In this document: positions 3-58,431 of the stretch, piece by piece
Layout of the letters: every line of letters begins with the position of its first letter
How positions within the stretch are numbered: position 1 is the first letter of the stretch
Assembly: GCA_965204535.1 (NCBI GenBank)
Contig: OZ241996.1
Span: 704,001-768,000, forward strand
DNA from: a bacterium
Lineage (GTDB): Bacteria; UBA8248
Direction: 5' to 3'
DNA: 64,000 nt
Notes under the pieces: model-generated
What the model was told of the DNA's origin: nothing
The model's input: the letters and a program-made list of their open reading frames with translations, nothing else
The model's database searches: none
Translations under genes and position numbers: made by a program

Positions 3-743
3 GCCATCACGGCGGTTTATGCGTATTGCCGCATGGCCGACGACATCGCCGATGAGCCAGGCGAGCTATCTGGTAAAAAAATCTCGTTGCGCGAGTGGAA
101 AGAGGCATTGGAGCAGTTGGGCGAGGAGAGTCCAGCCCACCCGATAATCGGGGAACTCGCATGGGCGTCGCGAAAATACGACTTGCCGCCGGAGCATTTC
201 CAGGCGATTTGTGACGGTGTCGCAATGGATTTGGAAGAGAGCCGATTTGAAGATTTCACGGACCTTGAAAATTATTGTGACAAGGTGGCGTCCGCCGTAG
301 GGCTGGCGTGTCTGGGCATCTTTGAGGCGAAATCAGTTTTTGCGAAAGACTACGCCGTTTGTTTGGGCAGAGCGCTACAGATGACGAACATTTTGAGAGA
401 CGTATGGGAAGATGCGGAACAGGGACGCATTTATATTCCGCGAAGCGAAATGGAGAAGTATGGAGTAACGGTATCCGATTTGAGAGACAAAAACGATACT
501 TCCGAGGTTTTAAGCCTTCTTCGGTTCCTGGCGCATCGGGCGCGTGAATACTATGAGGGGGCGAACGAAGCTTTGAGTTGCGAGAAGACAGGAAACCTTC
601 TTCCCGCCAGAATCATGGGCCGAATTTATCGGAGACTTCTGAGCGAGATGGAGGAGAATCATTTTCGACATATGGATTATCGCCCCTCTTTGAAGTCCAG
701 GGAAAAACTCCTGGAAGCGCTTCGCTGTTTTCTGGAAGCATAA
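3..743 (+). CDS. hpnD: Squalene/phytoene synthase family, presqualene diphosphate synthase HpnD-like (5' partial)
   Basis: Frame is open from base 3 (AITAVYAYCRMADDIAD); has the DDxxD motif and QMTNILRDVWED...GRIYIP; abuts hpnE. Confidence 0.8.
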   Translation, partial: AITAVYAYCRMADDIADEPGELSGKKISLREWKEALEQLGEESPAHPIIGELAWASRKYDLPPEHFQAICDGVAMDLEESRFEDFTDLENYCDKVASAVGLACLGIFEAKSVFAKDYAVCLGRALQMTNILRDVWEDAEQGRIYIPRSEMEKYGVTVSDLRDKNDTSEVLSLLRFLAHRAREYYEGANEALSCEKTGNLLPARIMGRIYRRLLSEMEENHFRHMDYRPSLKSREKLLEALRCFLEA

Positions 744-2099
744 ATGCCTGAACCTGTCGGATTCGAGCGACCGGTTGTCATCGTCGGCGGCGGCGCCGCA
801 GGGCTGTCCGCTGCCTTACGCCTTGCCGAGTCGGGCATCAAAGTAATCGTGCTCGAGGCGGGGAAGTTGCTCGGCGGCCGGGCGCGCAGTTTCATTCACT
901 CATCCACGGGTTTGGAGCTGGACTGGGGCCCGCATTTGTTCATGGCGGCCAATCCGGCGTTGCGCTCATTGTTGGAAAGAGTTGGCGCCACTGATGATGT
1001 TTTGTTCTCACCCTCCCTGGAAGTGAGCTACCGGATTCGGGAAGCGGATTCGGCTAGACGCACGCAATTGTCATTTCCGGAAGGTGGAGGAGTTTTGGCG
1101 CAACTCCGGGGCTTGCTCAAATGGCGTGGCCCTCGTCTTGGGGAGAAAGTGAATCTTCTGAAAGGTCTTTCGAAGATAATTTCCGAATCGAATGATGAAA
1201 ACCCGAATGAATCCATGTATGAAATGCTGGGGCGGCTGGGCCAGAAGGATGAAACAGTGCGCTGGTTTTGGGAGCCGTTTGCGCGCGCGGTGTTGAACTT
1301 GCCTTTGGAGCAGGGGAGTGCGGAATTGTTCAAGGCGGTGATTCGGGAAGCCTTCGCCGATGGACCAAAGGGAGCTGCGCTGGGGGTGCCGATGAAGGCT
1401 TTGGGAACGCTTTGGGCGAATAGAGCAGCTCAACGCATCCGGCACCACGGCGGAGAGTTGAGGCTTCAGCAGCCCGCCGTCGGGTTCGACGTCAAGAATT
1501 CAATAATGAGGGGCGTGATTCTGAAAGAGAGCGAGACCTTGCATGCGGCTGCCGTTATTTCCGCCGTGCCGCCTGACGCCCTTGGCAGACTGCTGGGCGG
1601 GGAACTCAGTGAGCGGGCGCCCTTCTCGAATCTGGGAAAACTACGCCCGGGGCCTATTGCCAGCGCCTATTGCTGGCTTGAGGAACCGGATGAGGGGCCT
1701 CCTTTCGAAGCGATTGTAGATGAGGAATGGGACTGGCTGTTTCGCCCGGAATCCAGTGGAAAAGGCGCGAGGAATCTGGTGTGTCTGTTGGCAGGAGCGG
1801 AAGATTCCATCGCATCTGCTGAGCGATCGACTATCGAGTCTTCTGCGAGAGATTGTCTGAATCGAATGATTCCCGGTAACCATATTCGAGATATTTTGGT
1901 GGTGCGGGAGCGCGCCGCTACCTGGGCGAACGGGGTAGCGGAGCAAAGATACCGGGTAGATACGAAAACGCCGATAGAGGGTTTTTTTCTGGCTGGAGAC
2001 TGGACTCGCACGGGATTGCCGGCCACCGTAGAGGGTGCGGTGAGAAGCGGGGAAAATGCAGCACAGGCGGTTTTAGAGTATACCGAGGCCAGCGTGTAG
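744..2099 (+). CDS. hpnE: Hydroxysqualene dehydroxylase, FAD-dependent
   Basis: GGGAAG FAD motif, GGRARS, C-terminal LAGDWTRTGLPATVEGAVRSG; directly follows the hpnD-like gene. Confidence 0.85.
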   Translation: MPEPVGFERPVVIVGGGAAGLSAALRLAESGIKVIVLEAGKLLGGRARSFIHSSTGLELDWGPHLFMAANPALRSLLERVGATDDVLFSPSLEVSYRIREADSARRTQLSFPEGGGVLAQLRGLLKWRGPRLGEKVNLLKGLSKIISESNDENPNESMYEMLGRLGQKDETVRWFWEPFARAVLNLPLEQGSAELFKAVIREAFADGPKGAALGVPMKALGTLWANRAAQRIRHHGGELRLQQPAVGFDVKNSIMRGVILKESETLHAAAVISAVPPDALGRLLGGELSERAPFSNLGKLRPGPIASAYCWLEEPDEGPPFEAIVDEEWDWLFRPESSGKGARNLVCLLAGAEDSIASAERSTIESSARDCLNRMIPGNHIRDILVVRERAATWANGVAEQRYRVDTKTPIEGFFLAGDWTRTGLPATVEGAVRSGENAAQAVLEYTEASV

Positions 2100-4235: not shown

Positions 4236-5078
4236 TTGTCGTTGAGTGACTCGCAATTAGAGGCGGTCTGTCATTTATTCAATGATGGCTCATCGCGTGT
4301 AAGGACGGCTTTGGACCGCCAGGTTGCCGAATTTTCGACTGAGGAGCAGAAAAGACTTCTGGATATGATGAAGAAGCATGAGACGAGCGAGGTGATACTG
4401 CCGCCATCGCTTCGGGAATTTCATTACAGTCAAATCGAGATTGCTTTTTCGGACTGGTCTCTTTCCTCGGTGGATGGTGTGGATCTGGAAGACGCTTGCT
4501 TCTTGTTGGCGTCTTTCGGCCATCCGCTCGAAAACATGGAAACGAAAAGAGACGAACTGCTGGGTATGGAAAATCATTTGCGGAGGCGATTGGAGGGTAT
4601 AGTCAAAGCCGATGCCATTGTCGACGAATTCGTGGAGTATCTACATGGGGAGCTTCGCTTCGATGGCGAGCGGGACAATTATTATGATGCGCAGAACAGT
4701 TTCATGAATCGCGTATTGGAGCGCAGGCGCGGCATCCCCATATCGCTTTCCGCTTTGTATTTGATTTTTGCCGGGCGGTTGGGACTTCCCTTTTACGGAG
4801 TCGGAATGCCGGGACATTTTATCGTGAAATACCAAGGTGATGAGCAACCCATATTTTTGGATCCCTTCGACAGGGGAAAACGCTTAAGCGTAGGGGATTG
4901 CGCGGCGATTGTGCGGAGCTTCGGGTATCATTTCGACATGCGGTTTTTACAGGAAACTCCCCCTCGCCGCATTGTGGAGAGAATGATCAACAATCTGCTT
5001 GGAGTTTATAAACGTGACGGAGAAGAAGAAAAGGCAACCTGCCTGCTTCGCTGTCGAGAACTGGTGCAACGAGTCTAA
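4236..5078 (+). CDS. SirB1 / transglutaminase-like family protein
   Basis: NYYDAQNSFMNRVLERRRGIPISLS and GVGMPGHF motifs. Confidence 0.85.
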   Translation: MSLSDSQLEAVCHLFNDGSSRVRTALDRQVAEFSTEEQKRLLDMMKKHETSEVILPPSLREFHYSQIEIAFSDWSLSSVDGVDLEDACFLLASFGHPLENMETKRDELLGMENHLRRRLEGIVKADAIVDEFVEYLHGELRFDGERDNYYDAQNSFMNRVLERRRGIPISLSALYLIFAGRLGLPFYGVGMPGHFIVKYQGDEQPIFLDPFDRGKRLSVGDCAAIVRSFGYHFDMRFLQETPPRRIVERMINNLLGVYKRDGEEEKATCLLRCRELVQRV

Positions 5079-5101
5079 AACTATCGTCGAGGAAAAGGGG
5101 T

Positions 5102-5566
5102 ATGGACTACTTTGAGTTGGCGGAAAATCTGGTGTTCGGGAGTCAGCCGGACCGGAAGGATATGGAATCTCTGGCGAATAAGGGGATTAAAACCCTGGTC
5201 AATTTGCGTTTCGCCGATGAGGAAGAACCGGAGTTGCCACCCGATGCAGAACGAGAGGCAGCGAGGGAACTGGGAATGGACTTTGTGAATATTCCCGTGA
5301 ACGCCGCCACCATAAACGATGCGTTATCCGGACAAATCCATGAAGCGCTCCATGAGGCCAGGAAAGACGGTCCGGTATACGTTCACTGAAAAGGCGTGGG
5401 GCGAGCCGGGATTTGCTCGCTTGTTCACTTGGCCGAAGAAGAAGGCCTAAGCGGAGACGAAGTGCTGCAAAAAGCCCGAGAGATTGGTTTTGACTGGGCG
5501 GCCTCGTCCATCGGAGGGTATTTCGAGGAATTCGCCAACCGCAAGAAGAATACCGGCGCATCGTAG
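5102..5566 (+). CDS. DUF442/Blh-type sulfurtransferase / phosphatase-like protein, predicted selenoprotein (UGA 5387-5389 = Sec)
   Basis: GSQP...GIKTLVNLR N-terminus; the UGA falls at the catalytic position VYVH-U-KGVGR (family HCxxxxR); frame stays open for 58 more codons to TAG 5564-5566. Confidence 0.8.
5401..5420 (+). promoter_or_regulatory. Putative bacterial SECIS hairpin
   Basis: GCGAGC-CGGGATTT-GCTCGC, starting 11 nt after the UGA. Confidence 0.65.
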
Positions 5567-5587: not shown

Positions 5588-5620
5588 AAAGAGGGGAGTC
5601 GTTTTCTCCCCTCTTTTTTT
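5588..5620. terminator. Intrinsic terminator between convergent genes
   Basis: AAAGAGGGGAG-loop-CTCCCCTCTTTTTTT. Confidence 0.75.
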
Positions 5621-5631
5621 GTGTTCAACCT

Positions 5632-7323
5632 CTATTCGTCCGTCACGCAACCCTCCGATGCGGAAGATACGCACTTGGCGTACTTGTAGAGTGTGCCCTT
5701 GGTGAATTTAAGCGGGGGCGCACTCCAGTTCTGTCGCCGTCGCTCTATCTCCTCCTCGGGCACTTTGAGTTCCATGACGCGGTTTTGGGCGTCAATCAAA
5801 ACAATGTCGTCGTCTTCAACGAGAGCAAGCAGGCCGCCGGTTTGGGCTTCAGGCGTGACATGTCCGACGACGAAACCATGCGTGCCGCCCGAGAACCTCC
5901 CGTCCGTGATAAGGGCGAGGTCGTTTCCGAGGCCGGCTCCCATGATTGCGGACGTAACCGTCAGCATCTCCCGCATTCCGGGACCGCCCCTGGGGCCTTC
6001 GTAGCGGATGATGACGACGTCTCCTTTTTCAACCCTGTTTTCCTCCAGTCCTTTGAGGGCGTCTTCCTCGGAATCGAAACAACGCGCGGGACCCTCGAAG
6101 CGTTCTCCCTCTTTTCCTGTGATCTTGGCGACGGCGCCCTCACTCGCAAGGTTTCCGTAGAGAATCTGGAGGTGGCCTGTTTTCTTGATGGGAGAAGAAA
6201 GCGGCACGATGACTTTCTGTCCCGTATGAAGGTCAGGCAAGGCTTCGATGTTTTCTCCGAGTGTCTGGCCTGTGACGGTGAGGCAATCGCCGTGGAGAAG
6301 ACCTTTTTTCAAAAGAAGTTTTTGAACGGCCGGCACGCCGCCCACGTCGTGGAGGTCTTCCATGACGAATTTTCCGCTGGGCTTCAAATCTGCAACGTAA
6401 GGCGTTCTGTCGCTGATTTCCTGAAAGTCGTCAATCGTGAGTTCGATCCCGACGGCCTTGGCGATGGCGATGTAGTGTAAGACAGCGTTCGTCGAGCCGC
6501 CGAGCGCCATGATGATGGTGATCGCGTTCTCGAAAGCTTCTCTCGTCATGATGTCGCTGGGCTTGATGTCGTTTTCGAGCAGGTGATAGACGGCTTTCCC
6601 CACGTCGAGACACTCGTTTTTCTTGTCCTCACTCATGGCGGGATTCGATGAACTGTAGGGCAGGCTCATGCCCAGCGTTTCAATGGATGAGGACATCGTG
6701 TTCGCCGTATACATCCCCCCGCAGGCCCCACCGCTCGGGCAGGCATGCCGGATGACCGCCTGGAAGCGTTCTTCGTCGATTTTATCCGAGAAATATTCGC
6801 CATAGGCCTGGAAGGCGGAGACCACGTCCAGCTTGTCTCCATTCAGAAACCCCGGGCTGATGGTGCCGCCATAAACCATCAGGCTGGGCCGGTTGAGCCG
6901 CGCCATCGCCATGATGGAGCCGGGCATGTTCTTATCGCAGCCGGGGAGTGTGACGAGGGCGTCATACCATTGCGCTCCGACGACGGTCTCGATCGAATCG
7001 GCGATGAGGTCCCGGGATTGCAGGGAGTATTTCATGCCCTCCGTGCCCATGGAGATACCGTCGCTCACGCCGATCGTGTTGAAAATGAGACCGACCATTT
7101 TCTTCTCGGCGTTCACGCTTTGCTTGATGTATTCGGCGAGCCGGTTGAGGTGAAAATTGCAGGAATTTCCCTCCCACCACATGCTGGCGATGCCGACCTG
7201 GGGGTTTTTCATGTCGATTTCATCCAGCCCCGCGCCGTAGAGCATGGCCTGTGAGGCGGCCTGTGAGGGCGGCTGAGTGATGCGCCGGCTAAATCGATTC
7301 AGGGCTGTTTTCTGCTCCATCAT
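5632..7323 (-). CDS. ilvD: Dihydroxy-acid dehydratase
   Basis: [37 protein letters not shown] motifs. Confidence 0.97.
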
Positions 7324-9643: not shown

Positions 9644-9810
9644 GCTTGTTTGAAGGGTAGATTTTTTGATCTTCAAGGCCCTGGATGATAGAGTCGACGG
9701 CGAATCCTGAACATATCACCGGATGATCATCGCCCGGGGATTCAACTGACGCCTGACGATATCCTTCCAGGATATTTTTGCAGCACAATGATGAAAGGGA
9801 GGGAGTGCTC

Positions 9811-10746
9811 GTGGCCACGCATGAACTGGATACCACCGTCGATACCTGCCATTGGGGCTTTTATGACTCAGCTCTTGCTCCCGTCATGACGATCGCTTCC
9901 GGCGATACGCTCGTCGTGAAAACCGAGTCTGGACGCAAAGATTTTCTGCAAAAACATCCCGAGAGAGTCTCGGATAATCTGAGGCGAATCCTGGAGACGA
10001 TGGAACAGGGACCCGGTGCGCACATCATGACGGGTCCGGTGGCGGTCGAAGGCGCCGAACCCGGCGATGTTCTGGAGATCAAGATTCGTGATATCAGACC
10101 CCGGTATGATTGGGGTTACAACGGTTTCAGGCCCCTGGTGGGTGGTCTGCCGGAGGATTTCCCTTATACGAGGGTTGTGATTGTCGAGGTGGACGAGGAG
10201 AGTGGAACGGGCGACTGGGGCGCGGGTGTCAAGGTGCCGCTCGGGCCTTTTTTCGGAAATTTCGGTGTGGCACCCGCTCCGGTGCTTGGGCGCGTGCCGT
10301 CGTCTCCCCCGGGAGAGTGGGGCGGCAATACGGATTGTAAGGAATTCACGGCCGGCTCGACGATTTATTTACCTGTTTTCACCGAAGGCGCCTTGTTCTC
10401 CGTGGGCGACGGGCATGGCTGCCAAGGGGATGGGGAGGCGAACATCAACGGAATCGAGATGGGCCTCATCGGCACTTTCGGGATGACCGTCCGCAAGGAC
10501 ATGGACATCAAGACCCCGCGCGCGGAGACGGAATCGCACTACATATTGATGGGTTTTGACCCGATTCTCGACAATGCGGCGAAGATGGCCTTACGCGAGA
10601 CGATTCAGTTTCTGGGTGAGCTTCGGGGCATGAGCCGGGATGATGCGTACAGGTTGTGCAGCCTGGCGGTCGACCTGCGCGTGACCCAAATCGTGAACGG
10701 CACCAAGGGCGTTCACGCCATGGTGCCCAAATCTTTATTCGAATAA
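9811..10746 (+). CDS. Acetamidase/formamidase family protein (copy 1)
   Basis: HIMTGPVAVEGAEPGD, GGNTD, GDGHGCQGDGE; GTG start after a GGGAG RBS. Confidence 0.9.
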   Translation: MATHELDTTVDTCHWGFYDSALAPVMTIASGDTLVVKTESGRKDFLQKHPERVSDNLRRILETMEQGPGAHIMTGPVAVEGAEPGDVLEIKIRDIRPRYDWGYNGFRPLVGGLPEDFPYTRVVIVEVDEESGTGDWGAGVKVPLGPFFGNFGVAPAPVLGRVPSSPPGEWGGNTDCKEFTAGSTIYLPVFTEGALFSVGDGHGCQGDGEANINGIEMGLIGTFGMTVRKDMDIKTPRAETESHYILMGFDPILDNAAKMALRETIQFLGELRGMSRDDAYRLCSLAVDLRVTQIVNGTKGVHAMVPKSLFE

Positions 10747-10762
10747 GTTTCATATTTATAAG

Positions 10763-11719
10763 GTGTCATCCTTGGCCGAACATGTGATTGCGCAAATCCC
10801 CGACAACATCCAGTGGGGTTATTATGACGCCGACCTTTCTCCGGTTCTCACCGTCGCTTCAGGCGATGTGCTCGAAATTCACACCGAGCCGGGGATCAGG
10901 ACTCTTGAATCTCCGATATGGGAAAGAGCTTCTGAAAATCTGCGAGAAATCGCCGAGCGCGGTAAGAGGGACCTGGGCGGTCATATCCTCACCGGACCCA
11001 TCGCTGTCGAAGGAGCTGTGGCGGGGGATGTCCTGGAAGTGAGATTTCTGGAAATCTGGCCGCGCTATGATTGGGGTTTTAACGTCATTCGGCCCCTGGC
11101 GGGCGGCTTGCCCGAGGATTTTCCGTATTCGAGAACGGTAATCGTGGAAATAGACAAAGAAGCGAATACGGGGGACTGGGGCGCAGGCGTGAAAGTGCCG
11201 CTCAGGCCTTATTTCGGCAACTTCGGCGTAGCACCACCGAGCGATTTCGGCCGTGTTCCATCCACTCCGCCGGGAATCTGGGGCGGAAACATGGACAACA
11301 AGGAATTTATTGCAGGTTCTCGCGTCTATCTTCCCGTATTTCACGATGGTGCTTTGTTCGCCATAGGTGACGGACACGGATGTCAGGGGGACGGGGAAAG
11401 CTGTCTCTCCGCCCTGGAATGCGGCATGTCCGCGAAAATTGAACTCATCGTCCGAAAGGATTTGAGTCTGAAAATGCCCCGCGCCGAGACACCGACTCAT
11501 CATATCCTCATGGGGTTCGATCCGATTCTCGATAATGCAGCCAAAATGGCGCTCAGGGAGACGATTCGGTTTTTAGGGGAATTGCGCGGCATGAGCAAAG
11601 ATGATGCGTATACACTGTGCAGTCTGGCGGTGGATTTGCGTATCACGCAGATTGTGAACGGGGTCAAAGGCGTTCACGCGATGTTGCCGAAGAGTATTCT
11701 TGATGAAGGAGTGTGTTGA
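10763..11719 (+). CDS. Acetamidase/formamidase family protein (copy 2)
   Basis: HILTGPI, GGNMDNKE, GDGHGCQGDGE. Confidence 0.9.
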   Translation: MSSLAEHVIAQIPDNIQWGYYDADLSPVLTVASGDVLEIHTEPGIRTLESPIWERASENLREIAERGKRDLGGHILTGPIAVEGAVAGDVLEVRFLEIWPRYDWGFNVIRPLAGGLPEDFPYSRTVIVEIDKEANTGDWGAGVKVPLRPYFGNFGVAPPSDFGRVPSTPPGIWGGNMDNKEFIAGSRVYLPVFHDGALFAIGDGHGCQGDGESCLSALECGMSAKIELIVRKDLSLKMPRAETPTHHILMGFDPILDNAAKMALRETIRFLGELRGMSKDDAYTLCSLAVDLRITQIVNGVKGVHAMLPKSILDEGVC

Positions 11720-12654
11720 TGGCGACTCATGAATTGATTGCAAACCCGGATACCGTCCATTGGGGCTATTATGACGCCTCCCTGGAGCCTGTGATGCGCA
11801 TTCGCTCGGGCGACACGCTGGAGGTTCATACGGAATCGGGACGCGAGGAATATCTGGCGGAACTCGGGGACCGGGCGTCCCAAAATTTGAGAAACATCAT
11901 CGCGCAGGTTTCCCAGGAGCTTGGCCCCCATATCATGACGGGTCCTGTGGCTGTAGAAAGCGCGCAGCCCGGAGACGTGCTGGAAGTCCGCATCCACGAG
12001 GTCAAGACGCGCTATGACTGGGGATATAATACCATCCGGCCGATGATGGGGGGATTGCCGGAGGATTTTCCGTATACGCGCACCGTCATCGTGGACCTCG
12101 ATCTGGAAGCGCAAACGGGGGACTGGGGCGCGGGCGTCAGGGTGCCATTGAGGCCTTATTTCGGCAACTTCGGCGTGGCGCCCCCGCCTGCCGTAGGCCG
12201 TGTGGGGAGCTATCCTCCAAGTGCGTGGGGCGGGAATTTGGACAACAAAGAACTCATCTCGGGTTCTGTCGTCTATTTCCCGATTTTTAACGAGGGTGCT
12301 CTGTTTTCCGTAGGCGATGGGCACGGCTGCCAGGGAGACGGGGAAGCCTGTTTGACGGCTATCGAAACGGGTCTCTCGGGGACGATGGAAATCATCGTCA
12401 GAAAGGATATGCAACTCGATAATCCCCGGGCGGAAACCGACACGCATTATATCCTGATGGGCTTTGACCCTATTCTCGATAACGCGGCCAAAATGGCGCT
12501 GCGTGAGACGATTAAATTTCTGGGAGAGTTGCGCGGCATGAGCAGAGATGATGCATATACACTTTGCAGTCTTGCCGTGGACTTGCGGGTCACGCAAATT
12601 GTAAACGGCGTGAAGGGAGTTCACGCCATGCTGCCGAAATCATTGTTTACATGA
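11719..12654 (+). CDS. Acetamidase/formamidase family protein (copy 3)
   Basis: HIMTGPV, GGNLDNKE, GDGHGCQGDGE; TGATG overlap with copy 2. Confidence 0.9.
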   Translation: MATHELIANPDTVHWGYYDASLEPVMRIRSGDTLEVHTESGREEYLAELGDRASQNLRNIIAQVSQELGPHIMTGPVAVESAQPGDVLEVRIHEVKTRYDWGYNTIRPMMGGLPEDFPYTRTVIVDLDLEAQTGDWGAGVRVPLRPYFGNFGVAPPPAVGRVGSYPPSAWGGNLDNKELISGSVVYFPIFNEGALFSVGDGHGCQGDGEACLTAIETGLSGTMEIIVRKDMQLDNPRAETDTHYILMGFDPILDNAAKMALRETIKFLGELRGMSRDDAYTLCSLAVDLRVTQIVNGVKGVHAMLPKSLFT

Positions 12655-22313: not shown

Positions 22314-22422
22314 CGAAAAACGTCTACTTTCAAAAGATTTTGCTCTGCTTTTTCATCTGCGAGTTTGTGGTGTATCATTAGCGCGCCATGCTCTTTCATA
22401 ACTCGTTTTTAAGGAGAAAATC

Positions 22423-23082
22423 ATGAACGTCACCATGTGGAACTGCTACGTCTGACCCTACGCCTACCGGGCCATGGAGTGGCTCGTTCGTCTTCAGGAG
22501 AAAAGAAGCGATCTGAAAGTGGATTACAAGGCCTTCGTGCTCGAGCAGGCGAATTTCGGCCCGGCGCGCGGCGAGGACTGGAAGGCCTGGGAAGACAAGA
22601 CCTTCCCGAGCAGGGACCTTCCCCCGCATCAGGCGGCCAAATGCGCGGCTTTGCAGGGCGAGACCCAGTTCGATAAATACCACGTGGCGCTCCACCGGGC
22701 GAGGCACCGCGACGGCAAGGACATCACCAGTGAACTGGTTTTGCGCGATATCGCCGTGGAAGTCGGCCTCGATGTCGATCGATGGGAGGAGGACATGAAA
22801 AGCGGCGCCACCATCCCCCTCATCGCGCAAGAGCATGAGGATGCGGCCGAGCAGGGCATTTTCGGCGTTCCCACGCTCGATTTCGGCGAGGGCAAACCCG
22901 TTTTCGTCAAGCTCGAAGAGGGCGATTGGGAGAGCGAGGGCGACGAGCAGGGTCTCCTGGACGCCGTTCGGGCCACTTCGGCCGAGCGGCCCTGGTTGCT
23001 GGAGCTCAAGACGCCCCAGTCCGCCAAGCTCAGTACCGCCTCATCGAAGAAGTACGAGAAATACGGGATGAAGGCGAGATAA
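22423..23082 (+). CDS. DsbA/FrnE-like thioredoxin-fold protein, predicted selenoprotein (UGA 22453-22455 = Sec)
   Basis: AAGGAG RBS and ATG 22423 are in frame with the tracked ORF; reads MNVTMWNCYV-U-PYAYRAMEW; C-terminal GIFGVPT cis-Pro motif. Confidence 0.82.
22468..22486 (+). promoter_or_regulatory. Putative bacterial SECIS hairpin
   Basis: CGGGCCA-TGGAG-TGGCTCG, starting 12 nt after the UGA. Confidence 0.65.
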
Positions 23083-57618: not shown

Positions 57619-58431
57619 GATGCCCCATTTCCTCCTTAATGTATCTAATTGTAACTGCACATCGTTTTTGTTCGCCGAGCAAACACCGATATGCAACCAT
57701 GCGTAGGGGTGGAGCCTTTCCTTTTGGTATATCAGAGTAGCACAGGCGGCGGCTGAGGGTGATACTTTTCGGACAGGACGTAGCTTGACCAGAGAACGGT
57801 GCCACCCCCGGTCAAAGAATCCCTTGTGGATCCGGTGCGCGGGTATGCAATCTGTGCACGGACGCATGATGCCCCTTAGGCGGCCTGCGTCGGCGCGACC
57901 TAGTTATTGGGATGAGGTGATGAGCCGCCACCTTCCTGGCCCCAAATACGGCCCAACGCTATGTAGGTGGCGGCTTCACTATGCAGGGCGACGACTCCGA
58001 CATGTTGGCGGAGTGGGTTAAGGCTGACTGGCCGCTGCAGGAGGCAGATGTGGTGACATTGTTCACCGCTGACTTCCACTGTTTATGGCACCGATAACTG
58101 ACTGGTGATGTCGACGGAGTGGCAGGCCATCCATATCATTCCGTACAACTTCTTTATCCATAACCCCGCGCTGAAGATCCGGTCGAAGTAAGGAGACGGG
58201 CGAGGGGCGCCGCTCCGGAGAGGTGGGTCGGGCGAGAATCGAACTCGCGCAAACAAATTTGCAGATTCGGGTGACTGTCCGCTTGGCTATCGACCACGGT
58301 GCTTTTCGCATTTTGAACAGCATCCTGTTCAGCCTTAGGTCTAGATACGGAGTCTGGGATATGGGGTGGCTCGTGGAGTTCATTGAGGAGCGGGACGCGG
58401 TTGATGAGGTACCTTATGGCATTGTTCCTAC

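Follow-up and report, generated by a model that had tools for sequence, protein, structure and literature searches.

The closest described systems are DUF442 domains with measured sulfur-transferase activity: in the available sections of the two reports, the DUF442 domain of Blh passes thiosulfate sulfur to cyanide or glutathione (PMC5823870), and a DUF442 domain from Cupriavidus performs similar chemistry through Cys94 (PMC9163753). A further protein, NMA1982, has a Cx4R loop and, according to the accessible part of PMC10716126, a weak phosphatase activity that is only halved without Asp71. Here we analyze a bacterial gene whose predicted product resembles these proteins and carries a predicted selenocysteine (Sec, U) at the place of the catalytic Cys.

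With the Blh N-domain (Xylella, Agrobacterium; NF040641, PF04273, TIGR01244) and the DUF442 domain of the Cupriavidus pinatubonensis SQR, the predicted protein shares the family match, the fold and the x4-R loop; Thr occupies the would-be acid position both here and in Blh, and identity to plasmid Blh N-domains is 31–34%. It differs from the Blh and SQR domains in having Sec for Cys and an extra Cys105, in standing alone and in scoring below the TIGR01244 cut-off, and the locus shows neither an ETHE1/SQR fusion nor a BigR/TauE neighbourhood. The best profile matches among solved structures are NMA1982 (PDB 2f46; E 7e-21) and a Shewanella DUF442 protein (3gxg/3gxh; E 2e-16), both with a Cx4R loop and close to the predicted fold (TM 0.70–0.73, Z 16.4–17.9), whereas sequence identity is 18–26%, the nucleophile here is Sec and Asp71 of NMA1982 is not conserved. 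The Cys-dependent tyrosine and dual-specificity phosphatases (PTP/DSP) Tk-PTP, TpbA and VHR have the overall fold, the nucleophile and Arg, and the E-loop Glu in common with the predicted protein, but its loop is one residue shorter, a conserved acid Asp is absent and Ala follows the Arg. Finally, the rhodanese-domain selenoproteins (forms 1–5 of a 2026 inventory: PF00581, NF041203, NF045694), one of which is encoded in the same genome, likewise have the predicted catalytic Sec of a sulfur-transfer enzyme; they belong to another family and fold, whereas the DUF442 model matches PTP/DSP structures.

The gene lies near the start of the window, by which we mean the whole 64,000-nucleotide stretch of DNA that was analyzed (Table 1). 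From the ATG at 5102 the frame runs for 95 codons to an in-frame TGA and for 58 further codons to a TAG, and translation with TGA as U gives ...PVYVH-U96-KGVG-R101-AGICSL... within 154 residues. Re-reading the sequence agrees with the initial annotation on the coordinates, on a TGA at the place of the catalytic Cys and on a 154-residue read-through to the TAG. A consensus scan found no promoter on the + strand, nor was a terminator-like hairpin found on that strand between the TGA and the TAG.

Table 1. Features of the selenocysteine gene and its immediate surroundings (window coordinates).
Feature	Position	Strand	Basis or remark
SirB1-like / transglutaminase-core gene	4236..5078	+	PF13369; 23 nt upstream of the Sec gene
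Shine-Dalgarno-like GAGGA, 8 nt 5' of the ATG	5089..5093	+	Sequence; purine-rich stretch there in relatives
DUF442/PTP-fold gene (predicted fold)	5102..5566	+	154 aa, one in-frame TGA read through, stop TAG 5564–5566
TGA, predicted Sec96, at the catalytic Cys place	5387..5389	+	TGA in relatives, Cys in homologues
Putative U-x4-R active-site loop, U96-K-G-V-G-R101	5387..5404	+	Aligns with NMA1982 C95-x4-R100 and the Blh Cx4R loop
SECIS-like hairpin	5399..5422	+	Core GCGAGC/GCTCGC, loop CGGGATTT, -11.1 kcal/mol
Cys105 (TGC)	5414..5416	+	No variation in the Sec clade; the hairpin 3' arm begins with its last two bases
Terminator-like hairpin (5588–5616) plus T run, 3' of the TAG	5588..5626	+	Weak: 3 sites (two overlapping) versus 1.5 expected
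ilvD, dihydroxy-acid dehydratase	5632..7323	-	PF00920/PF24877; convergent

The main evidence for selenocysteine is the conservation of the codon. Codon 96 is TGA in 31 of 31 loci at 38–99% identity (30 of 55 matches plus the paralogue described below), and pattern scans that left codon 96 out returned TGA throughout, in 48 of 48 loci from genomes and 17 of 17 from metagenomes; these three sets overlap and are kin, and their counts are not independent. Past the TGA the frame stays open for 49–59 codons in all loci but two, where it meets a second TGA after 35 codons and a contig end after 14, respectively. In the alignment column of residue 96, 150 library homologues have 134 Cys, 6 Ser, 3 Asp, 2 Gly and 5 gaps, four of the gap rows being fragments of the Sec clade. 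The pairing of UGA with Cys among relatives that the initial annotation proposed to look for is therefore present, with TGA in all relative loci checked and Cys in most homologues. A contig from a second study also spans the codon and reads TGA, its five differences all lying elsewhere, so that, at the level of contigs rather than raw reads, a TGC or TGT misread as TGA is not borne out. Two loci depart from the pattern in other ways: in one genome the orthologue has decayed to a pseudogene with a frameshift, the codon reading TGG and the hairpin being eroded (L143; G009:C10:131444), and in another the Trp132 codon of the orthologue is a second TGA (L147; G010:C5:285631). The paralogue is kept in both genomes.

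A search of 51 genomes of the phylum gave profile matches in 36, all within one family (36 of its 42 genomes). One of these is a distant Cys-type protein, leaving the UGA form in 35 of the 42. The selA gene is present in 49 of the 51 phylum genomes and in 33 of the 35 with the UGA form; both misses are the two least complete genomes (79% and 67%). In the genome under study, selA (572.8 bits), selB (389), selD (331.5) and tRNA-Sec (75.9) all score above cut-off, selA and selB being adjacent, so the set of sel genes whose presence was to be checked is complete, tRNA-Sec included. The selD gene, which was found independently of any hairpin scan, carries an in-frame TGA of its own, followed after 11 nt by a hairpin (GGGUC-CGGAG-GACCU) with the same layout as that of the DUF442 gene.

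These data bear on the simplest alternative, in which no selenocysteine is made and the TGA is a true stop, a sequencing error or a codon read as Trp or Cys. In the genome under study UGA serves as an ordinary terminator: RF2 is present and TGA ends three of nine window genes checked, which indicates that UGA generally means stop and leaves a Trp or Cys reading without support; the sole UCA tRNA among 52 tRNAs is tRNA-Sec. All public gene calls of the clade that we examined end at residue 95, as would be expected of a true stop and as the initial annotation had anticipated for automated pipelines. Among 119 of the 120 database matches listed, 54 are of 100 aa or fewer and 53 of these end one residue before the Sec; in one public record the 53 aa beyond the TGA stand as a protein of their own, and one NCBI record of 95 aa is titled ‘sulfur transferase domain-containing protein’. 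Against a true stop, the 95-residue product would lack the nucleophile, Arg101 and three helices of the predicted structure, the frame beyond the TGA is kept open as described above, and codon 99 is not a conserved start; against an error, the same TGA is found in independent assemblies and in each of the two paralogues. The absence of selenocysteine can thus hardly be credited, and we conclude that the gene is real, conserved and very likely encodes selenocysteine at codon 96.

We analyzed the hairpin behind the TGA in the same manner. GCGAGC (5401–5406) pairs with GCTCGC (5415–5420), so that the core begins 11 nt past the TGA, and two G-U pairs lengthen the stem to 8 bp around an 8-nt loop, CGGGATTT, that starts 17 nt past the TGA. 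The initial annotation was right about a hairpin at 11 nt and right only in part about a G-rich loop, since CGGGAUUU is G-rich in its 5' half alone. The bacterial SECIS consensus (loop 3–9 nt, stem 4–16 bp, a G among the first two loop nucleotides, spacing 16–37 nt, <= -7.5 kcal/mol; PMC13188914) is matched on all four counts (8 nt, 8 bp, C-G, 17 nt, -11.1); 130 of 2000 synonymous shuffles also match this consensus. The fold energy of the 28-nt hairpin has a z of -2.4, whereas four longer stretches after the UGA are not significant (z -1.1, -0.7, -0.8 and +0.7). With the protein sequence kept, synonymous resampling gave an equally stable hairpin in 43 of 2000 draws, and such a hairpin follows 5 of 484 TGA stops of long ORFs.

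Codon choice within the hairpin is frozen: Gly100 is GGG in 28 of 28 loci, and Ala102 (GCC), Gly103 (GGG), Cys105 (TGC) and Ser106 (TCG) are each invariant in 31 of 31, whereas at 11 control codons the commonest form averages 0.57 over 31 loci and the genome uses GGG, GCC and TCG at 0.23, 0.40 and 0.27. Arg101 is encoded by CGA or CGG alone, both of which pair with U. Across 20 sequences the stem is paired in 140 of 140 cells; six of seven pairs are invariant, one alternates between A-U and G-U, and two-sided compensatory changes are absent, so that covariation is neutral, neither for nor against. As judged by these codons, the hairpin is under selection as RNA. Conservation, in the form of the same codon and of frozen synonymous sites, is the strong evidence here, and fold energy alone is weak evidence.

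The assignment to DUF442 with a Cx4R-type loop made in the initial annotation is borne out by the PF04273 match, by the profile and fold matches and by the alignment of the U-x4-R loop. PF04273 (DUF442 / BLH_phosphatase) gives 37.2 bits against a cut-off of 26.1 (32.5 for the 95-residue piece alone); the DSP-like models PF22741, PF22784 and PF22785 are above cut-off as well, and the PF04273 match is therefore not exclusive. Other models stay below their cut-offs: TIGR01244 over residues 5–132 (53 bits versus 85.85; paralogue 48.9), NF040641 (Blh; 66 versus 625, N-domain only) and DSPc (20.1 versus 33.5). PF00581 gave no match at E 0.01, nor did any rhodanese NCBIfam model, including NF041203, at E 0.1. 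A structure model built from a 112-sequence alignment with Cys in place of Sec at position 96 (pLDDT 95) places residue 96 between strand 92–95 and helix 100–114. In a fold search with this model, the DUF442 protein 3gxg/3gxh (Z 17.9, rmsd 2.5 over 140 residues) ties with Tk-PTP (Z 17.6), and NMA1982 follows at Z 16.4; the predicted fold is thus DUF442/PTP.

In the tree, 25 Sec rows group with a lone Cys protein, P0003, on a single branch apart from 74 Cys-type rows, with an SH-aLRT support of 100 in a quick tree and 100/99 in a more careful tree computed without the hairpin columns. This single branch suggests one origin of Sec in the family, followed by duplication. P0003 / P0156, a Cys form of 162 aa, lies inside the Sec clade and retains GRAGVC past the loop. 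We considered whether P0003 is a Sec-to-Cys reversion; it is nested within the clade in both trees, but the reversion is not established, as the AU test keeps a Sec-only clade (p 0.228). A second Sec lineage, proposed through P0270 (a 93-aa record ending at H, outside the clade), finds no support, since P0270 has full-length relatives and one shorter fragment. Second UGA copies also occur in two other genera (L144, G034:C212:23542; L098, G024:C517:2335), and their differing loops (U-REGER, U-MASGR) point to more than one duplication.

As to function, we propose that the 154-residue selenoprotein probably transfers sulfane sulfur with Sec96 as the nucleophile. In the mechanism envisaged, (i) SelB with Sec-tRNA, acting on the hairpin, would very likely decode the UGA as Sec; (ii) the loop backbone and Arg101, set by the invariant Glu40, would by homology hold an anionic donor, e.g. 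thiosulfate or a persulfide; (iii) the selenolate would accept the sulfane sulfur to form an enzyme Se–S adduct; and (iv) this adduct would pass its sulfur to a thiol, sulfite or protein acceptor, as the persulfide of Cys-type DUF442 proteins does. The likely benefit of selenium is a nucleophile already ionised at neutral pH and able to recover from oxidation.

The initial annotation spoke of a sulfurtransferase/phosphatase and left the choice open; sulfur transfer is favoured here by the contexts of the relatives and by an acid Asp that is not conserved. Blh N-domains and ‘sulfur transferase domain’ proteins head the annotated plasmid relatives (31–36% identity), and the two stand-alone relatives examined both have MBL, TauE and ArsR-family genes around them, one of them also YeeE/YedE. 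Two of the 12 best library matches (P0007, P0013) are fused to rhodanese or to MBL plus rhodanese. In the same genome, a mercaptopyruvate-sulfurtransferase-like gene also has an in-frame TGA.

The opposing case, a selenoprotein phosphatase in which Sec96 would attack a phosphoester to give a phospho-selenocysteine, as Cys does in protein tyrosine phosphatases, draws on the PTP/DSP-like fold predicted by the model (Z 17.6 to Tk-PTP, 16.4 to NMA1982), on the retained nucleophile position, Arg101 and E-loop Glu40, the last of which is invariant, and on the Cx4R loop of NMA1982, which hydrolyses a phosphotyrosine mimic. This hydrolysis is slow, however (kcat 4.4e-5 per s; PMC10716126), and the C(X)5R signature of PTP/DSP enzymes is replaced by U(X)4R. 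The general-acid Asp is not conserved either: in the sequence alignment, from which alone this column was read, column 70 is T5/E5/N4/other in 17 clade rows, and the place of Asp71 in NMA1982 is taken by Thr both here (Thr70) and in Agrobacterium Blh. Near Cys relatives, moreover, sit in sulfur gene contexts, and the part of PMC13188914 that lists 119 selenoprotein families names no phosphatase. A phosphatase is distinctly unlikely on this evidence, and so, to a like degree, is its corollary, that the protein would be the first phosphoryl-chemistry selenoenzyme of the protein-tyrosine-phosphatase superfamily, acting on a phosphoprotein, a small phosphoester or selenophosphate; if true, it would be a hydrolytic, non-redox use of selenocysteine.

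Cys105 raises a different alternative, a selenoprotein thiol oxidoreductase in which Sec96 would attack a loop-held peroxide, disulfide or oxyanion (arsenate) and Cys105 would resolve the product as a selenenylsulfide. Cys105 is invariant in 31 of 31 loci and rare in Cys-type homologues, which mostly have F/L/M/V; most selenoproteins in the listed part of PMC13188914 are thought to be redox enzymes; and a selenoprotein of the OsmC-like type adjoins the paralogue in 23 of 25 loci. In its 3' arm, however, the hairpin demands xGC at codon 105, restricting the residue to Cys, Arg, Ser or Gly, and column 105 is F/L/M/V/I in 88 of 95 homologues; Cys being the best suited of the four residues to a hydrophobic column, the RNA can account for Cys105. 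Residue 105 also falls within the modelled helix 100–114. Cys105 probably owes its presence to the hairpin and not to a part in catalysis. The OsmC link is restricted to one paralogue group, mostly of one genus, and no arsenic gene was found among annotated neighbours, most neighbours in other genomes being clustered without annotation. We therefore regard an oxidoreductase as unlikely, and sulfane-sulfur transfer as the better reading of the active site.

The neighbours of the gene and the want of clear partner enzymes weigh against sulfane-sulfur transfer, as do the TIGR01244 score below cut-off and the tie with Tk-PTP in the fold search. The SirB1-like gene lies upstream in 38 of 40 orthologue loci and ilvD downstream in 38 of 40 (co-directional in 9), the misses being short contigs. 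Upstream across the family are a squalene/phytoene synthase gene and a flavin amine-oxidase gene (window 33–2099, + strand), which we take to be hpnD/hpnE-like. The conserved neighbours (hpnD/hpnE-like genes, a TPP enzyme gene, the SirB1-like gene and ilvD) are housekeeping rather than sulfur-oxidation genes. A search of the genome found no clear persulfide dioxygenase (best E 4e-9 and 1e-17, with higher scores as glyoxalase II-like proteins) and no clear SQR (best E 1e-6, with one type III model only). Among longer proteins, the two matches are an apparent chimera with an unrelated domain and a distant methyltransferase fusion; no ETHE1 fusion of the Sec clade was found in this search, which is weak evidence. 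Housekeeping work in sulfur handling is a better fit than an operon dedicated to sulfide detoxification. Elsewhere in the window, three similar tandem genes, the first of the acetamidase/formamidase family, occupy 9778–12654 (+), and ARAGORN places a tRNA with an unassigned two-letter anticodon at 58222–58296 (-).

The genome has a second copy (G000:C2:1923732-1924181), 45% identical and with TGA at the same codon, and two copies are found in most genomes of the genus. The paralogue lies 22 nt behind an OsmC-like gene (NF041052, 168 bits; L124:7205-7765 (-), equal to G000:C2:1924204-1924764) that has its own in-frame TGA, the two forming a two-selenoprotein gene pair; among 25 paralogue loci, the OsmC-like neighbour is at 24–28 nt in 19 and at a greater distance in 4. 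Many genomes of the genus also have, close to the paralogue, two adjacent MBL-like genes and a glyoxalase-family gene (L124:8583-10216, -); one MBL-like gene matches Lactamase_B and, weakly, flavorubredoxin, the other has no match, and by our scans these genes are not ETHE1-like.

The duplication would suit a selenium-carrier role, in which Sec96 would bind the selenium of selenide or selenophosphate as a perselenide and supply a heavy demand for selenium. The host is rich in selenoproteins, as the read-throughs described next suggest, and rhodanese is credited with selenium transport in abstracts. In this genome, however, neither copy has selA/selB, selD or selC nearby, and 15 of the 51 phylum genomes have selA yet no match, so that such a role is highly improbable and sulfane-sulfur transfer remains the function we favour.

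According to the available portion of PMC13326102, BSepDB places UBA8248 organisms among the ten most selenoprotein-rich, with 48–54 genes. Sponge and marine metagenomes are among the listed datasets that contain related sequence, and no RNA dataset is among them. A scan of the genome for TGA plus hairpin kept 117 candidates from 67,734 in-frame TGAs, and of 20 read-throughs hand-picked from these, 18 match a family (GrdB/PrdB-like, AhpD-like, OsmC, UGSC, DsbA, deiodinase-like, DUF3179 and mercaptopyruvate-sulfurtransferase-like) and two match none. Because the scan preselected hairpins it is uninformative on how frequent the SECIS shape is, and it missed the OsmC-like gene beside the paralogue. 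The predicted selenoproteome has several AhpD/CMD-like, three deiodinase-like (GAIT-U-PP), three OsmC-like, two UGSC and two GrdB/PrdB-like members. The window itself holds a second gene with an in-frame TGA, DsbA-like (22402–23079, +; TGA at 22453; PF01323, E 4e-18 as read-through), with the motif CYV-U-PY and a hairpin behind it; its Cys is three residues N-terminal to the Sec, there is no Cys C-terminal to it, and DsbA-like proteins are a listed selenoprotein family. The list of 117 candidates may hold further unlisted selenoprotein families, and the lineage seems to be among the most selenoprotein-rich known.

The suspicion in the initial annotation that DUF442 is not well documented as a selenoprotein family agrees with the inventories. 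Table 1 of PMC13188914, as far as covered here, has no DUF442, TIGR01244 or phosphatase-fold entry among its 119 families, its sulfur-transfer entries being rhodanese-domain, DsrE and YeeE/YedE proteins. The text and four supplements of deep-Sep (PMC12013277) contain no such family, a positive control having passed; the word ‘phosphatase’ does not occur in the main text of PMC9312934 or PMC13745706; and NCBIfam 20 has no selenoprotein model for the DUF442 family. Full-text literature searches, at the level of listings and abstract openings, yielded no description, most subscription papers and the BSepDB family table being outside this scope. The replacement of Cys by Sec in this family and fold is missing from the lists checked. 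Since the gene is truncated in all database records examined, homology-based surveys miss the DUF442 selenoprotein.

The gene is known from uncultured organisms and represents one further Cys-to-Sec replacement of a familiar type, with a putative activity. A natural Sec form of the Cx4R loop would nevertheless give a handle on the choice between sulfur transferase and phosphatase for DUF442 proteins in general, and would test the effect of selenium on PTP-fold catalysis. The locus also illustrates an RNA signal that shapes a protein: the hairpin fixes eight codons beside the active site, and a new cysteine in a helix may be its consequence. Finally, with this finding the bacterial selenoproteome gains a family and, it would seem, a fold as well.
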